Shown here one piece after another: positions 15,144-21,740 of a stretch of DNA of 32,000 nucleotides; position 1 is the stretch's first letter; the number at the start of each line of letters is the position of its first letter. The stretch comes from Snodgrassella gandavensis (GTDB taxonomy: Bacteria; Pseudomonadota; Gammaproteobacteria; Burkholderiales; Neisseriaceae). Made by a program: the position numbers and the translations under genes. The stretch is taken from positions 192,279-224,278 of the forward strand of contig NZ_CAJZCE010000001.1 of assembly GCF_914768025.1 (NCBI RefSeq), given 5' to 3'. The notes beneath the pieces were generated by a model. The model was not told the DNA's origin. It saw nothing but the letters and a program-made list of their open reading frames with translations, and made no database searches.

Positions 15144-15153
15144 GGAATTGAAA

Positions 15154-15615
15154 ATGAGCATGAGTTTAATTGGGGATATTTTACCGGTTTCACATGTGGT
15201 TCTGGATTTGAACGTAAGCAGTAAGAAACGCCTGTTCGAAGAAGCCGGCCACTTGTTGTCTCAACAGGCAGGTCTTTCACAGGAAGATGTGTTTAATTGT
15301 CTGTTTGCGCGTGAAAAGCTGGGTTCTACTGCATTAGGTAAAGGTGTGGCTATTCCTCATGGTCGTACTGGCGCAGTGACTGATACTGTAGGCGCTTTTT
15401 TTCGGCTGCAAACACCCATCGCCTTTGATGCACCAGATGAACAGCCGGTTAGTATGATATTTGTGTTGCTGGTGCCGGAAAATGCTTCAACCAGACATCT
15501 GAATGTGTTATCAGAACTGGCTGGAAAATTTTCACAGAAATCGGTACGCAATGCCCTGTTGTCCGCAACCAGTGCCGAAAGTGTGCGCGAAATACTGGTA
15601 GCAGAACAGGTATAA
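15154..15615 (+). CDS. ptsN: Nitrogen-related PTS enzyme IIA (EIIA-Ntr)
   Basis: PTS EIIA type-2 domain with the phosphorylatable His in GKGVAIPHGR. I prefer ATG 15154 (RBS AGGAA 6 nt upstream) over the track's TTG 15148. Confidence 0.85.
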   Translation: MSMSLIGDILPVSHVVLDLNVSSKKRLFEEAGHLLSQQAGLSQEDVFNCLFAREKLGSTALGKGVAIPHGRTGAVTDTVGAFFRLQTPIAFDAPDEQPVSMIFVLLVPENASTRHLNVLSELAGKFSQKSVRNALLSATSAESVREILVAEQV

Positions 15616-15627
15616 GGACGAATTATC

Positions 15628-16590
15628 ATGCCCAGTATATCGGTACGGCGCTTATATCATGACAATCAGACCAAGTTGAAACTTGCGTGGTCTGCTGGTA
15701 CGGCTGGTGCGGATAATCGCATCAGTATTGATGCCGATAAGCCGGTATTGGCACTGGTTGGTCACCTGAATTTCATACATCCCAATCAGGTACAGGTAAT
15801 CGGGATTGCTGAAGTAGAATATCTGAATAAAATTGAGGCTGGTGAAATTAAAACCACACTCAATGAATTATTCGATTTAACTATGTCGCTGATTATTGTT
15901 GCCAATGATTTGCCTGTACCATACATGTTGCGTGATTATTGCCATACGCATAATGTACCATTGCTGACATCCAAGACGGAAAGCCCTTTTCTGATGGATG
16001 TATTACGCATCTATCTGCAACGGGTACTGGCTGCATCTACAGTCAAATACGGTGTATTTCTGGATGTTTTTGAAGTCGGAGTATTGATTATCGGCCAGTC
16101 AGGACTGGGAAAAAGCGAGCTGGCGCTGGAATTGATATCGCGCGGACATGGTCTGGTGGCGGATGATGCAGTGGAATTGTATCGTATTGGCCCAGAAACG
16201 CTTGAGGGGCGCTGTCCGGCCTTGTTGAAAGACTTTCTTGAAGTGCGCGGCTTGGGGGTGTTGAATATTCGGGCAATTTTTGGTGAAACTGCCGTACGAC
16301 CAAAAAAGCAGTTACAGCTAATAATCAATTTGGTACTGGCAGATGACAGCCATATGCAGCGAATAGACCGCCTGAGTATCAAAAGTGAAACGGAAAGTAT
16401 TCTGAACGTATCTATTCGCAGTGTTACCTTGCCGGTAGCAGTTGGACGCAACTTGGCCGTATTAGTAGAAGCTGCTGTCAGTAATTTCATTTTACAGATG
16501 CGGGGAAAAGACAGTACCAAGCAATTTCTGGATCGTCATAATTCCATGCTGCAAGAGGATGCTGTGAATCATGAGGATAGTATTGATTAG
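15628..16590 (+). CDS. hprK: HPr kinase/phosphorylase
   Basis: 320 aa with P-loop [19 protein letters not shown] and downstream LVADD and EVRGLG motifs. Confidence 0.9.
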
Positions 16591-17431
16591 TGGATTGTCC
16601 GGTTCCGGAAAATCTATTGCTTTACGTTTACTGGAAGATGTTGGTTTTGTCTGCGTGGATAATCTGCCGGTAAAGCTTTTACCTGATTTGATTGAACACT
16701 ATGCTGCCAGCGATGTGGCACAGCTAGGTGTCAGTGTGGATATACGCTCTCGTTTTAATCCGGCAGAAGTGCTGGAGTTGGTAACCCGCTTGCGTGCCCA
16801 AAAACATCAGGTTGATTTGCTGTTTTTAACTTCTTCCGCGGTCGTATTGCTTCGCCGTTTTTCTGAAACACGCCGCAGTCATCCTCTGGCACAGGAACAC
16901 AAAACCTTAAGTGAAAGCGTTGCTGCTGAACAGCAATATATGTCTGCCTTACAAAGATATGCATATGTTATTGATACCTCCTTGCTAAATGTGCCGCAAT
17001 TGCGCCGGCAGATTCAGCAATGGCTGCATTTGCCCGTGGCTCCGATGCGCGTAGTGCTGGAATCTTTTGGTTATAAATATGGCGTGCCTGCTGGCTTGGA
17101 TTTTGTCTTTGATGTTCGCTTTCTGCCTAATCCATATTATGATTTTCACTTGCGTCCCTTTAGCGGTCTGGATGAACCAGTCAGGACATTTTTTTCCCAG
17201 CAGCCAGTGATGGCAGAAATGATTGCAGATTTAGCCGATTTTTTGCTGCGCTGGTTACCGCAGATGGAAAAAGAAAGTCGCAGCTATGTTAATATCGGTG
17301 TTGGCTGTACAGGTGGTCAGCATCGTTCAGTTTATATCGTGGAAGCTTTAGCGCAGCAATTAAATGCTTATTGCGTACTGGTGCGGCACCGGCAGTTAGA
17401 GTTAAGTAAGAATTCTGAAAAAACGGTATAA
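16571..17431 (+). CDS. rapZ: RNase adapter protein RapZ (YhbJ)
   Basis: [33 protein letters not shown], a C-terminal [10 protein letters not shown] motif, and a 20-nt overlap with hprK. Confidence 0.9.
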
Positions 17432-20149: not shown

Positions 20150-20236
20150 CCTGCAATTTATTTAAACAAATACCCTAGTATATGTTATCTCCGATTAATC
20201 AATGTAGTAAAATCTTTACATTAAATTTTGGTTTTG

Positions 20237-20250
20237 TTGATTTATATCAA
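20237..20250. promoter_or_regulatory. Perfect FNR/CRP-family consensus box TTGAT-N4-ATCAA
   Basis: The sequence is TTGATTTATATCAA, and the palindrome arms extend to 8 bp (TTGTTGAT 20234-20241 / ATCAACAA 20246-20253). It lies 131 bp upstream of the PAS gene ATG. Confidence 0.6.
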
Positions 20251-20269
20251 CAAAAAGTGTAGTTTTATG

Positions 20270-20275
20270 CATAAT
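20270..20275 (+). promoter_or_regulatory. Candidate -10 hexamer CATAAT downstream of the FNR box
   Basis: 19 bp separate the FNR box end from the hexamer. That places the box centre near -39 to -41 of a predicted start site (class II-like geometry). This is a prediction only. Confidence 0.35.
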
Positions 20276-20380
20276 TTGATTAAATACTTTGTATTCTTTT
20301 GCTAATCGGCGCAATATATACTCAAAATCGACTTTTGTATTGTTTGCCTAGTTGTCCACATTCAAGAAAATGGAGTCATA

Positions 20381-20872
20381 ATGATTTCACCAATGCAGGT
20401 GCCTGAAATTGAGCACCGTACATTTGAATTGACACATTACGATGGGGTAACACGCACCGTATATTGTACTGATGTAGAAACAGAGTTTCCTGATGGCTGT
20501 CTGATTACCTCAACGACAGATCTGAAGGGCATTATCACACATGCTAATGAAGTATTTGTGCATATGAGCGGGTGGTCACGTAGTGAGTTGATGGGTGCAG
20601 AGCATTACATTCTACGCCATCCTGATATGCCGAAAGTGGCTTATAAGGATTTATGGGATACCGTGCAACAGGGCAAAAAATGGCACGGCTATGTCAAAAA
20701 TCTGCGCAAGGATGGCGGCTTTTATTGGGTATATGCCACTATTGTTCCCAATATTCGTGATGGTGTTATTCAGGGTTATACTTCAGTGCGGCGTAAGCCA
20801 TCACGTAGCAAAGTATTGGAAATGCAGAGTCTCTATGAGGGGTTAATGAAAGAGGAACGGGGTAATTCATGA
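20381..20872 (+). CDS. Stand-alone Aer-type (flavin-binding type) PAS domain protein
   Basis: 163 aa. TDLKGIITHANEVFVHMSGWSRSELMGAEHYILRHPDMPKVAYKDLWDTVQQGKKWHGYVKNLRKDGGFYWV closely parallels the PAS-FAD domain of E. coli Aer (..NMVRHPDMPKAAFADMW..KKGEPWSGIVKNRRKNGDHYWV..). No output domain is present. RBS is GGAG. Confidence 0.8.
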   Translation: MISPMQVPEIEHRTFELTHYDGVTRTVYCTDVETEFPDGCLITSTTDLKGIITHANEVFVHMSGWSRSELMGAEHYILRHPDMPKVAYKDLWDTVQQGKKWHGYVKNLRKDGGFYWVYATIVPNIRDGVIQGYTSVRRKPSRSKVLEMQSLYEGLMKEERGNS

Positions 20873-21618
20873 CTATTAATTTTCTGATTGCACCAGATTT
20901 TCCCCCCAAATATTATGCAGGCTGGCATTTTCTCAACACCCGTCTGCAACGGTTGATAGATGCACCTGTGCATTTGTTTATGCCCAGCAATACAGAAGAA
21001 GAACATCAGGAAATTGACAATGATAATGTTGACATCATCTATGCTAATCCATTTAATGCTTCCAAGCTGATTCGCGAGTTAGGCTACTTGCCTGTAGTAC
21101 GTCCAGTAAACCGTTTCGATGAAATGGTAATTGCCAGCGCTGCAGAAAGTGAAATTAAATCAATTCAAGACATCAAGCCCGGCATGTCGATTCTGTGTAC
21201 AGAAAATTATGATGTTAAGCTCATTGCCTTGCGCTTAATGGAAGCAGTCGATATAGATGAACAAGACCTGACATGGATTAAAAGTGAATCATTCCCGGCA
21301 GTGGCTCGCGGACTCATTCAGCATGAGGGTGATATTGGTTTGTTTATGTCATCTGCCTACCATAAATTAACTCCAATCACCTTGAGCCGTTTGAATTTGT
21401 TGATTGAAAGTAAAATCAATGATTTATATCATATGATTTTACTGCATCCCCGTAATGCCGGTATGCTGGAAACATTACAGCATGCATTCAGTTCCATGCA
21501 TGAAACGCCTGCTGGCGCAATGCTACTGGAAGATTTAGGCCTGAATGACGGGTTTGCTGTATTGAAGAAAGAAGAAGCTGAATTGCTGATTGACCTGATT
21601 GAAACATTACGCGATTAA
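20869..21618 (+). CDS. PhnD/phosphonate-type substrate-binding-fold protein lacking a signal peptide
   Basis: 249 aa. The start overlaps the PAS gene stop (ATGA). The pattern INFLIAPDFPP...PVHLFMPSN...VDIIYANPFNASKLIRELGYLPVVRP resembles periplasmic phosphonate-binding-like domains. The N-terminus is not hydrophobic or basic, and the ORF cannot be extended upstream. Confidence 0.6.
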   Translation: MTINFLIAPDFPPKYYAGWHFLNTRLQRLIDAPVHLFMPSNTEEEHQEIDNDNVDIIYANPFNASKLIRELGYLPVVRPVNRFDEMVIASAAESEIKSIQDIKPGMSILCTENYDVKLIALRLMEAVDIDEQDLTWIKSESFPAVARGLIQHEGDIGLFMSSAYHKLTPITLSRLNLLIESKINDLYHMILLHPRNAGMLETLQHAFSSMHETPAGAMLLEDLGLNDGFAVLKKEEAELLIDLIETLRD

Positions 21619-21651
21619 ACCTGTCGCAACCATTTTTATTTTATAATTGAA

Positions 21652-21690
21652 AACGCAACTTGTTGATGAAAACAGGTTGCGTTATTTTTT
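21652..21690 (+). terminator. Rho-independent terminator after the PAS/binding-protein pair
   Basis: 13-bp stem AACGCAACTTGTT / AACAGGTTGCGTT (one G-U pair), 6-nt loop, then ATTTTTT. Confidence 0.8.
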
Positions 21691-21740
21691 ATAGTTGAGT
21701 AATGGTTATTTGTGTGAGTCAGGCTAGTTTGCAAGCAAAA

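Follow-up and report, generated by a model that had tools for sequence, protein, structure and literature searches.

How does a signal leave a gene pair that encodes a stand-alone PAS protein and a signal-less binding protein, with no recognizable output domain beside them? This question is raised by a locus in a 32 kb stretch of DNA from the bee-gut bacterium Snodgrassella (hereafter, the window), for which a preliminary description, made from the sequence alone, had proposed an oxygen-responsive sensory module of two genes. Both open reading frames were confirmed in the window, together with the ATGA in which the stop codon of the PAS gene overlaps the start of the gene for the PhnD-fold protein. 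The locus comprises the following features:

20232..20255, no strand assigned: predicted FNR/CRP-family operator, whose core TTGATTTATATCAA at 20237..20250 lies within a perfect inverted repeat
20270..20275, plus strand: predicted -10 hexamer CATAAT from the promoter scan, a consensus match only, 19 bp past the box
20299..20320, plus strand: conserved 5' leader block TTGCTAAT-N4-GCAATATATA, from the Snodgrassella-clade upstream alignment A3
20372..20375, plus strand: Shine-Dalgarno GGAG, read from the sequence, 5 nt ahead of the PAS start codon
20381..20872, plus strand: stand-alone Aer-type PAS protein, 163 aa (Pfam, PDB match, AF2, Foldseek)
20869..21618, plus strand: cytoplasmic PhnD-fold protein, 249 aa, as supported by PF12974, AF2, Foldseek and the family alignment
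21652..21693, plus strand: predicted intrinsic terminator, in which a stem of 13 pairs with a 6-nt loop precedes a T-run (stem-loop 21652..21683)

The Shine-Dalgarno region ATGGAGTCATAATG is likewise kept in alignment A3, and the pair lies between rluB and a dus gene. The absence of ABC permease or ATPase neighbours, pointed out in the preliminary description, holds for the whole window, in which none of the phosphonate type occurs and the sole ABC genes are one for an ABC-F protein and, at a distance of 16 kb, an ABC-2 efflux set. Neither an fnr gene nor a gene for a HAMP/MCP transducer is present in the window, and anti-phage defence models gave zero matches.

The first protein had been described as a bare PAS domain of the Aer type, a characterization that is borne out by the domain and structure searches. 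The Pfam search proposed at that time returned PAS_3 (1.4e-14) and PAS (3.5e-10) and no further domain, leaving the 163-aa polypeptide with PAS matches only and without HAMP/MCP signalling domains. In a PDB sequence search, its closest solved relative is the PAS-FAD domain of E. coli Aer (8DIK, E 1e-36), with which the RHPDMP and KN.RK.G..YWV motifs align; matches to Tako8 in the same search were rejected as spurious, this being a repeat protein with no stretch above the threshold alone (about 5 bits each). The AF2 model (pLDDT 91.9) consists of an N-terminal β-hairpin (residues 13-29), a PAS core (approximately 42-138) and a C-terminal helix (142-161), and Foldseek superposes it on 8DIK with a TM of 0.94, an rmsd of 1.2 Å and 45% identity, its top fold matches being all flavin PAS/LOV domains. 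The FAD residues of Aer, namely R57, H58, D60, W70 and N85, correspond to R79, H80, D82, W92 and N107 of the window protein; across 80 family members, R57, H58, W70 and N85 are conserved in 100% and D60 in 85% of the sequences. With these contacts kept, the PAS protein probably binds FAD. Two other Aer positions, R96 and N98, which we take to lie on the β-sheet face contacting HAMP, are occupied by Y and T, respectively, throughout the 80 members.

The second protein matches PF12974 (Phosphonate-bd) at 1.2e-25, spanning the full profile, and its AF2 model (pLDDT 89.7) retrieves ArrX, PtxB, AioX and PhnD in Foldseek with TM values of about 0.8 (0.70-0.81 for ArrX and AioX), so that the phosphonate-type binding-protein pattern seen by eye now has both profile and fold behind it. 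The claim that the protein lacks a signal peptide and cannot be extended upstream also stands. The 249-aa open reading frame is inextensible because it already begins at the first start codon past the upstream stop, the model enters strand 1 at residue 3, and all members of the PhnD-like family keep the motif NFLIAPDFPP from residue 2-5 at the N-terminus; within these bounds, neither a signal peptide nor a lipobox was found. Nine residues (D10, W19, H20, Y58, N60, N113, D115, E180 and H188) are invariant in the family, and presumably sit at the usual ligand place of type II binding proteins. A weak, low-confidence profile alignment (E 0.003) places the loop 'AsTSSH' of PtxB against a shorter family segment that carries the invariant N113 and D115. 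Some homologues have an additional precomputed match to PF09084 (NMT1). The nearest fused relatives are STAS-PBP proteins, which account for 14 of the 15 longer relatives, none of these 15 being a natural PAS-PBP fusion. The neighbours of this sister (STAS) clade are STAS, PP2C and HATPase_c_2 proteins, and in the single STAS-PBP contig with sufficient flanks, the fusion gene follows that of a SpoIIE-type phosphatase and precedes a Roadblock gene. Taken together, the sequence and the structural model support a cytoplasmic protein of the PhnD fold that has no transporter partners.

The PAS/PhnD-like family is present at 531 places in a collection of one genome per species, and gene neighbourhoods were counted at 80 related loci. 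In 79 of the 80, the PhnD-like gene is immediately preceded by the PAS gene in the same orientation, and the stop of the latter overlaps the start of the former in 66; the two genes are conserved neighbours, and the translational coupling that had been proposed from the ATGA of the window is supported. In the wkB2 pair, the PAS protein has the accession AHN28549.1. The pair is usually accompanied. A Roadblock/LC7 (MglB-type) gene (Pfam 9e-17) adjoins it at 59/80 loci, the recurring c4 and c3 proteins are found at 56/80 and 52/80, and a small GTPase (PF03029/Roc/Ras) is encoded in cis at 15/80; in addition, the c6 and c28 proteins form a single receiver-like family (hhalign 6.5e-24). In further Neisseriaceae, Roadblock genes uncoupled from MglA adjoin the PAS-PBP genes. 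A reading of c3, or of its relative S219, as a second Roadblock protein found no support in profile comparison (Pfam E 0.25, hhalign E 0.22). Searches of the cluster proteins gave no match to a kinase or to DUF742, no HAMP/MCP gene stands beside the pair at any of the 80 loci, and ABC permease or ATPase genes are not recurrent there.

These neighbourhoods change the answer given at first. The statement that the module has no output is correct locally, as no relatives of Roadblock, the GTPase, c3, c4 or c6/c28 were found in the 32 kb window even at an HMM threshold of E<=10, but it holds only locally, because elsewhere the pair sits inside a larger cluster with Roadblock, GTPase, c3, c4 and c6/c28 proteins. 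The notion of a self-contained two-gene module without any related known architecture is therefore not supported in that form, since the larger cluster matches the group 3 MglA systems. The pair also stands alone at approximately 20 other Neisseriaceae loci, and consequently the link proposed for Snodgrassella is one of guilt by association across genomes.

The core TTGATTTATATCAA, identified in the preliminary description as a perfect FNR consensus, is the only exact TTGAT-N4-ATCAA across the 32 kb window; its inverted-repeat arms, given there as 8 bp, are 10 bp long by direct reading (20232..20241 and 20246..20255), and within the Snodgrassella clade the upstream footprint alignment keeps these arms while the 4-base spacer varies. 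When the scan for FNR-type boxes was anchored on the first gene of the operon (75 upstream regions), a box with at most one mismatch was found at 30/75 loci versus about 1.6 expected, and an exact box at 14/75 versus about 0.05 expected. A scan anchored on the PAS gene alone missed the box everywhere outside the Snodgrassella clade and locus L019, a misleading result because the Roadblock gene starts the operon in most taxa. The FNR-type box is thus supported as a conserved feature of the operon. Placement of the CATAAT hexamer about 19-20 bp after the box proved accurate (19 bp); from the centre of the box to the first base of this predicted -10 there are 26.5 bp, which, assuming a typical start site, would put the box at about -38.5 to -39.5, approximately 3 bp below the canonical class II geometry of -41.5. 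The terminator that had been said to close the unit was also recovered, with its 13 pairs followed by the T-run. Related genomes retain the gene pairing, the overlap and the FNR box alike, and on this comparison they are more than chance.

Where, then, are the missing partners in Snodgrassella? A second Snodgrassella locus, L087-L089, encodes in order a TM/TPR-like protein, S382, a GTPase, S219 and a Roadblock protein, and the last four of these match proteins of the larger cluster by hhalign (S382 with c6, 5.7e-6; GTPase with c19, 4e-49; S219 with c3, 1.6e-9; Roadblock with c2, 6.6e-45). The operon is also found in Neisseria. With its GTPase, two MglB-like genes and a receiver-like protein, this locus can be equated with the group 3 MglA/MglB system of the literature (PMC4316618, PMC11112851). 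An unknown protein, receiver-like plus wHTH-like, has been described as a neighbour of group 3 MglA (Wuichet & Sogaard-Andersen 2014, PMC4316618), and the c6/c28 family fits this description. In Snodgrassella, the mglB genes have been tied to motility by type IV pili and to colonization of the host, and mutation of an orphan mglB is reported to alter both this pilus-dependent motility and the colonization (Meng et al. 2024, PMC11112851). A search for this orphan, mglB-3 (SALWKB2_RS04330), recovered the operon copy in all named Snodgrassella matches among the best 120. For S483, with which the mgl operon of Snodgrassella begins, a FimV/TspA-like assignment had been made by eye only and was dropped, as NCBIfam gave it no support. 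The PAS protein, the PhnD-fold protein, c4 and FNR control go unmentioned in PMC4316618 and PMC11112851, and literature searches on the PAS/PhnD-fold architecture returned nothing direct.

With Mgl parts present both in the related loci and at the second Snodgrassella locus, the likely exit route of the signal can therefore be named. We consider it reasonably probable that the pair forms, as an FNR-induced flavin/ligand sensor, the front end of a group 3 MglA/MglB switch whose genes are distributed over two or more loci in Snodgrassella, the link to MglA/MglB being inferred from gene neighbourhood. In the mechanism that we propose, an FNR-type regulator bound at 20237..20250 would switch the operon on at low oxygen, as the consensus site and its conservation suggest, and the PAS and PhnD-like proteins are co-produced from one transcript by coupled translation, as the sequence shows. 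The PAS protein, given its 45-50% identity to Aer and its flavin contacts, probably binds FAD and would report the redox or electron-transport state in the manner of the Aer PAS domain, presumably in complex with the cytoplasmic PhnD-fold protein. The latter could serve as an adaptor, or its conserved cleft could bind a small ligand of the cytoplasm. The neighbourhoods of other genomes suggest that the complex would act on Roadblock/MglB-type proteins and in this way shift the MglA-type GTPase between its GTP and GDP states. Against this reading stand the isolation of the pair in the window and at the approximately 20 other Neisseriaceae loci, the small share of loci with the GTPase in cis (15/80), the lack of a PAS-PBP fusion among the longer relatives, the failure of c3 to score as Roadblock-like, and the distance between box and hexamer, some 3 bp short of class II geometry.

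Other explanations for the pair have to be weighed against this one. It could be an autonomous two-protein sensor of redox state and ligand, acting in Snodgrassella on a target unrelated to MglA/MglB, such as an enzyme or regulator that is encoded elsewhere and controlled through direct protein contact. Its lack of linkage to Mgl components, both in the window and at the approximately 20 Neisseriaceae loci, and its own predicted promoter and terminator agree with such autonomy; nevertheless, the same genomes retain the Mgl operon, sister Neisseriaceae hold a Roadblock gene within the PAS-PBP unit, and in no lineage does an alternative partner recur beside the pair, for which reasons we regard this explanation as unlikely. 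Still less probable is a metabolic unit, in which the PhnD-fold protein would be a cytoplasmic enzyme or metabolite carrier (THI5/NMT1-like or MqnA-like) and the flavin PAS protein its redox partner or regulator. The PF09084 match of some homologues and the strictly conserved residues at the presumed ligand positions would suit this function, but the neighbours are of a signalling kind in every lineage (Roadblock, GTPase and receiver-like proteins here; STAS, PP2C and HATPase_c_2 in the sister clade), and no metabolic gene is recurrent beside the pair.

An aerotaxis receptor divided as in CetB/CetA, whose free PAS protein would dock on a HAMP/MCP transducer encoded elsewhere, for instance a receptor of the pilus chemosensory system, is very improbable. 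A stand-alone Aer-like PAS protein does recall Campylobacter CetB, and several database sources name the PAS family 'aerotaxis receptor'; against this, a HAMP/MCP gene adjoins the pair at none of the 80 loci, the invariant partner is the PhnD-like protein, and the R96 to Y and N98 to T replacements extend through the family. Finally, the view that the second gene belongs to a conventional ABC transporter, whose exported phosphate/phosphonate-binding protein it would encode, and is only incidentally paired with the PAS gene, which its PF12974 and PhnD/PtxB fold matches and database names of the type 'phosphate ABC transporter substrate-binding protein' might encourage, is effectively refuted by the lack of space for a signal peptide, the family-wide conservation of the N-terminus, the absence of permease and ATPase neighbours, the fusion of relatives to cytoplasmic STAS domains, the pairing with PAS at 79/80 loci and, at the low confidence of that alignment, the shorter N-x-D segment in place of the PtxB oxyanion loop.

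The front-end reading can also be compared with systems that are already known. The free Aer-like PAS protein CetB of Campylobacter jejuni is co-expressed with a separate signal-carrying partner, CetA; there, the partner is a HAMP/MCP transducer, whereas here it is a PhnD-fold protein. To our knowledge, Snodgrassella has no flagella. With E. coli Aer (8DIK), the PAS domain shares 45-50% identity, the FAD-contact residues and a predicted fold superposing at 1.2 Å, but the present protein has no membrane anchor, HAMP or MCP, and it displays an extra N-terminal β-hairpin and a PhnD-fold partner. The best structural matches of the second protein, ArrX and AioX (PDB 6XL2 and 6EU7), set a precedent for the use of the PhnD fold in signalling rather than transport; these are periplasmic, oxyanion-binding sensors for two-component histidine kinases, in contrast to a protein that is cytoplasmic, associated with PAS, STAS or Roadblock, and tentatively without the Ser/Thr oxyanion loop. 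Group 3 MglA/MglB shares with the cluster the MglA-type GTPase, one or two coupled Roadblock/MglB proteins plus an orphan, the unknown protein with a receiver-like N-terminus, and also the taxa (Neisseriaceae, Xanthomonas, Stenotrophomonas); as published, it comes without PAS, PhnD-fold or c4 proteins and without FNR control. The actinobacterial conservons or AGPS (CvnA-D; PMC13343842) likewise group the genes of one signalling unit, in which a sensor and a small PF03029-type GTPase are accompanied by a Roadblock/MglB protein and an unknown protein, but their sensor CvnA is histidine-kinase-like, their GTPase belongs to group 2 instead of group 3, and they occur in a different phylum; an equivalent of CvnA or of CvnC (DUF742) was not found among the cluster proteins.

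If the reading is true, it corrects several misleading database names ('aerotaxis receptor', 'diguanylate cyclase' and 'phosphate ABC transporter substrate-binding protein') and reveals the PhnD fold in a new signalling role inside the cytoplasm, with PAS in this family and with STAS in the sister clade. Group 3 MglA/MglB is widespread in beta- and gamma-proteobacteria, Neisseria, Xanthomonas and Stenotrophomonas among them, and comes without a sensor in the literature searched; the pair, if attached to it, would add a sensory input for oxygen or redox state and possibly for a metabolite. A broader scenario, which we put forward tentatively and hold to be possible rather than likely, is that the pair constitutes the missing input of this switch, in which, during hypoxia signalled by FNR, the redox state sensed through FAD and perhaps a cytoplasmic metabolite bound in the cleft would be relayed by Roadblock proteins to a Ras-like GTPase. 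This GTPase would control the polarity of type IV pili, twitching and the placement of biofilm on the oxygen gradient of the bee ileum wall. Such an arrangement might be called 'energy taxis without a chemoreceptor' in non-flagellated beta- and gamma-proteobacteria and, if true, it would connect the pair to the host-colonization phenotype of Snodgrassella mglB.

The closest protein match was to Snodgrassella sp. ESL0253 (98% identical), Snodgrassella being a member of the Neisseriaceae from the bee gut. Our re-reading confirmed that the sequence observation of the preliminary description was real and accurately read, and the features of the unit encoding the PAS protein and the PhnD-like binding protein (PBP) are as follows:

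20237..20250: exact FNR consensus TTGATTTATATCAA, nested in a perfect inverted repeat (20232..20255) whose arms are 10 bp long
19 bp past the FNR box, forward strand: predicted -10 hexamer CATAAT
20299..20320, forward strand: conserved leader block TTGCTAAT-N4-GCAATATATA, past the predicted -10 hexamer and ahead of the Shine-Dalgarno
20381..20872, forward strand: PAS protein ORF, 163 aa, read from sequence
20869..21618, forward strand: PhnD-like protein ORF, 249 aa, read from sequence
21652..21683, forward strand: main terminator with a 13-pair stem, end of the unit

The stop of the PAS gene and the start of the PhnD-like gene overlap as ATGA at 20869..20872, as had been described, and the claim that the second ORF cannot be extended upstream was confirmed from the codon positions, since its start is the first start codon past the upstream stop. 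The terminator said to close the unit was likewise located; a weaker terminator-like hairpin of 5 pairs (21611..21627) precedes it and overlaps the PhnD-like stop codon. The flanking genes are housekeeping genes, with rluB upstream and a dus gene, then a SpoU methylase gene, downstream; ptsN (PTS EIIA-Ntr), HPr kinase and rapZ (15148..17431), an ordinary gene set further upstream in the same orientation, show that the pair is inserted among housekeeping genes. The 32-kb window contained no phosphonate transporter genes, consistent with the reported lack of ABC permease or ATPase neighbours, and no fnr gene, while anti-phage defence-system models matched no component. The sequence shows a single transcription unit with coupled translation, both products of which are cytoplasmic by sequence and model.

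PAS models were the sole domain matches in the 163-aa protein (PAS_3, 1.4e-14), in line with the earlier view of a bare PAS domain without an output domain; its public names, which include 'diguanylate cyclase' and 'aerotaxis receptor', are unfit for a protein with a PAS domain only. Among solved structures, the top match was the PAS domain of E. coli Aer that binds FAD (8DIK, E 1e-36), and the Aer-type motifs named in the preliminary description align with it as stated. The predicted model (pLDDT 91.9) matched the Aer PAS-FAD structure with a TM of 0.94 and an rmsd of 1.2 A; two further FAD-binding PAS domains, from NifL and MmoS, ranked next, ahead of LOV domains. Among 80 family members, the Aer residues R57, H58, W70 and N85 are invariant and D60 is kept in 85%. 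Because of this Aer-like fold and the conserved Aer residues, we strongly infer that the PAS protein would bind flavin, and that its domain would be a flavin-binding redox sensor. The family differs from Aer in a confident additional N-terminal beta-hairpin (residues 13-29), which Aer lacks, and in the replacement of R96 by Tyr and N98 by Thr; a long C-terminal helix (142-161) is a further family-specific feature.

The phosphonate-type binding-protein pattern noted in the 249-aa protein was borne out by a PF12974 match covering the whole profile (1.2e-25) and by structural matches to the PhnD fold. The confident predicted model (pLDDT 89.7, pTM 0.82) matched closed ArrX, PtxB, AioX and PhnD with a TM of about 0.8, at identities of only 11-17%. 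Strand 1 begins at residue 3, and every homologue keeps the motif NFLIAPDFPP..GWH at its N-terminus, which leaves no room for a signal peptide and agrees with the reported lack of one. In a weak alignment with PtxB, the Ser/Thr oxyanion loop matches a shorter segment with invariant Asn113 and Asp115, which tentatively hints that the ligand, if any, is not a phosph(on)ate. When 1.84 billion representative proteins were searched exhaustively with a profile, no more than 651 relatives came up, of which 90 reached E<=1e-30; the family is therefore a compact clade.

A one-genome-per-species scan placed genes for PhnD-like relatives at 531 places, in Neisseriaceae, Comamonadaceae, Moraxellaceae, Xanthomonadales and other groups; the pair and neighbourhood counts given here rest on 80 loci out of these 531. 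Conservation as neighbours, raised as a check in the preliminary description, was found: in 79/80 loci the PAS gene immediately precedes the PhnD-like gene in the same orientation, the remaining locus having no upstream DNA, and the stop/start overlap spans 4 bases in 53 of the 80 and 1 base in 13. Pairing and overlap far beyond chance support co-translation, and the two proteins probably form a complex. In a rumen Neisseriaceae MAG (L015 349..2535), two PhnD-like paralogues in tandem come after the PAS gene.

Outside Snodgrassella, the pair is embedded in a larger conserved cluster, identified by grouping neighbouring ORFs and confirmed by tblastn (80 loci). The earlier picture of a self-contained two-gene module without output was not supported as it stood by this comparison, as a Roadblock/LC7 protein of 120 aa (Pfam 9e-17) precedes the PAS gene in 59/80 loci and a P-loop GTPase of 178 aa (PF03029, Roc, Ras) is present in 15/80. 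Two recurring neighbour families are c4, which follows the PhnD-like gene in 56/80 loci, and c3, found in 52/80, for which profile comparison gave no support as Roadblock-like. Two others, c6 and c28, form one family (profile comparison E 6.5e-24) with a receiver-like N-terminus. One complete example of the cluster, in Faucicola (L027), reads Roadblock, PAS, PBP, c4, c28, GTPase, c3; some Neisseriaceae have the orders Roadblock-PAS-PBP, PAS-Roadblock-PBP or PAS-Roadblock-PAS-PBP, the last with two PAS paralogues flanking Roadblock (L019 4172..6741; L049 4359..6744; L097 922..3231).

The c4 proteins (L023 6747..7343; L027 6902..7621) gave no Pfam or NCBIfam match and are absent from Snodgrassella; their conserved motif HHCL(T/A)C(H/D)D is CxxCH-like in Comamonadaceae but without the His in Moraxellaceae. 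Conservation is unusually high in the PAS-adjacent Roadblock protein, with 72-83% identity among Comamonadaceae, Moraxellaceae and Xanthomonadales (L023, L027, L041, L068, L069), and Neisseriaceae versions are about 40% identical to this group. In Casimicrobium (L063 3500..4851), the full cluster is directly preceded by an additional Roadblock and PhnD-like pair that has no PAS gene, which suggests that these two form the minimal recurring unit.

Among the nearest multi-domain PhnD-like relatives, 14 of 15 tested have STAS domains at the N-terminus, between one and three of them. A single contig offered sufficient flanking sequence; the order in this sister clade (L081 224..3886; L082) is SpoIIE-type PP2C phosphatase, STAS-PBP fusion, 120-aa Roadblock; in other STAS-PBP contexts the upstream gene gave weak, sub-threshold HATPase_c_2 matches, and the C-terminus of the PP2C phosphatase also matched HATPase_c_2 weakly. 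The arrangement resembles a partner-switching module to which a Roadblock protein has been added, and we know of no earlier description of it. Given the STAS fusions, this clade within the PhnD fold is a cytoplasmic signalling domain, with PAS as input in one branch and STAS in the other; a Roadblock gene is its neighbour once more in the one STAS-fusion context whose flanks could be read.

With HMM hits up to E<=10 taken into account, none of the Roadblock, GTPase, c3, c4 and c6/c28 partner genes was found in the window. Searching with a Neisseriaceae Roadblock profile brought up Snodgrassella Roadblock proteins on other contigs, and their locus (L087-L089) is a five-gene operon encoding, in this order, a TM/TPR-like protein, S382, a 178-aa GTPase, S219 and Roadblock. 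Profile comparison matched its GTPase to the cluster GTPase family c19 (E 4e-49), its Roadblock to the cluster Roadblock family c2 (E 6.6e-45), S219 to c3 (E 1.6e-9) and S382 to c6 (E 5.7e-6). Operons of this type also occur in Neisseria and other Snodgrassella species. The first protein of this mgl operon in Snodgrassella and Neisseria, of about 485 aa (L088 4161..5612; L090 4114..5592), has an N-terminal TM helix, a low-complexity region and a TPR-like C-terminus, and is absent from the single-cluster versions in Moraxellaceae; a FimV-like identity was a guess without support.

Group 3 MglA, as defined by Wuichet and Sogaard-Andersen (PMC4316618), is found almost only in beta/gamma-proteobacteria, Neisseria, Stenotrophomonas and Xanthomonas among them, and its conserved neighbourhood comprises an unknown protein with a receiver-like N-terminus and wHTH-like C-terminus, MglA, and one or two MglB; that paper nowhere uses the word 'PAS'. 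According to Meng et al. (PMC11112851), Snodgrassella possesses a single group 3 mglA together with two coupled mglB and, about 1 Mb away, an orphan mglB. A G78R change in the orphan gene favours its carriers in competition within a non-native bee host and changes the colony flares that depend on type IV pili, and in a re-reading of Tn-seq data each of the three mglB genes came out as beneficial for colonization. The PAS/PBP pair is not mentioned in that paper, and the literature searched contained no description of a PAS-PhnD-Roadblock association.

The FNR box is the sole exact consensus in the 32-kb window. The preliminary description was right about the perfect consensus and the distance to CATAAT (about 19-20 bp), while its 8-bp arms read directly as 10 bp; as for its class II geometry, the box centre lies 26.5 bp before the predicted -10, about 3 bp nearer than in the canonical arrangement. 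A scan anchored on the PAS gene found the box mainly in the Snodgrassella clade. Re-anchored on the first gene of the operon (75 loci, <=1 mismatch), it found the box in 30 loci against about 1.6 expected from a background of 0.0217 per 270 bp in the same loci, and an exact box in 14 against about 0.05. In Comamonadaceae and Xanthomonadales the box is found 50-68 bp upstream of the Roadblock start; in the Snodgrassella clade, where the arms are kept and the spacer varies, it is found 135-172 bp upstream of the PAS start. Moraxellaceae loci have none, except one 1-mismatch site at -205 in L071. Enrichment above background, consistent position and kept arms are good comparative evidence that the box would be functional, and point strongly to FNR-type control of the operon. 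The leader block has a TTGC-N8-GCAA dyad within it and is conserved throughout the Snodgrassella clade, also in the more distant MAG loci L006 and L008; it may serve as a second operator or as an RNA element.

We consider it probable that the pair is a sensory front end feeding the group 3 MglA/MglB switch. The main rival, autonomous action of the pair in Snodgrassella, draws on its being unlinked from the Mgl genes there, and we hold it to be unlikely; metabolic, CetB-like and periplasmic readings are less likely. As a sensory front end, judging from gene neighbourhoods, the PAS and PhnD-like complex would act on Roadblock/MglB proteins, which would pass the effect to the group 3 MglA GTPase. 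According to the literature, this GTPase system influences pilus-dependent motility and colonization in Snodgrassella, and may also control transcription via the receiver-like/wHTH-like protein. The link from the pair to MglA/MglB appears undescribed and is directly testable: rather than an output-less orphan, the pair is probably the detached sensory module of a known, poorly understood small-GTPase system.
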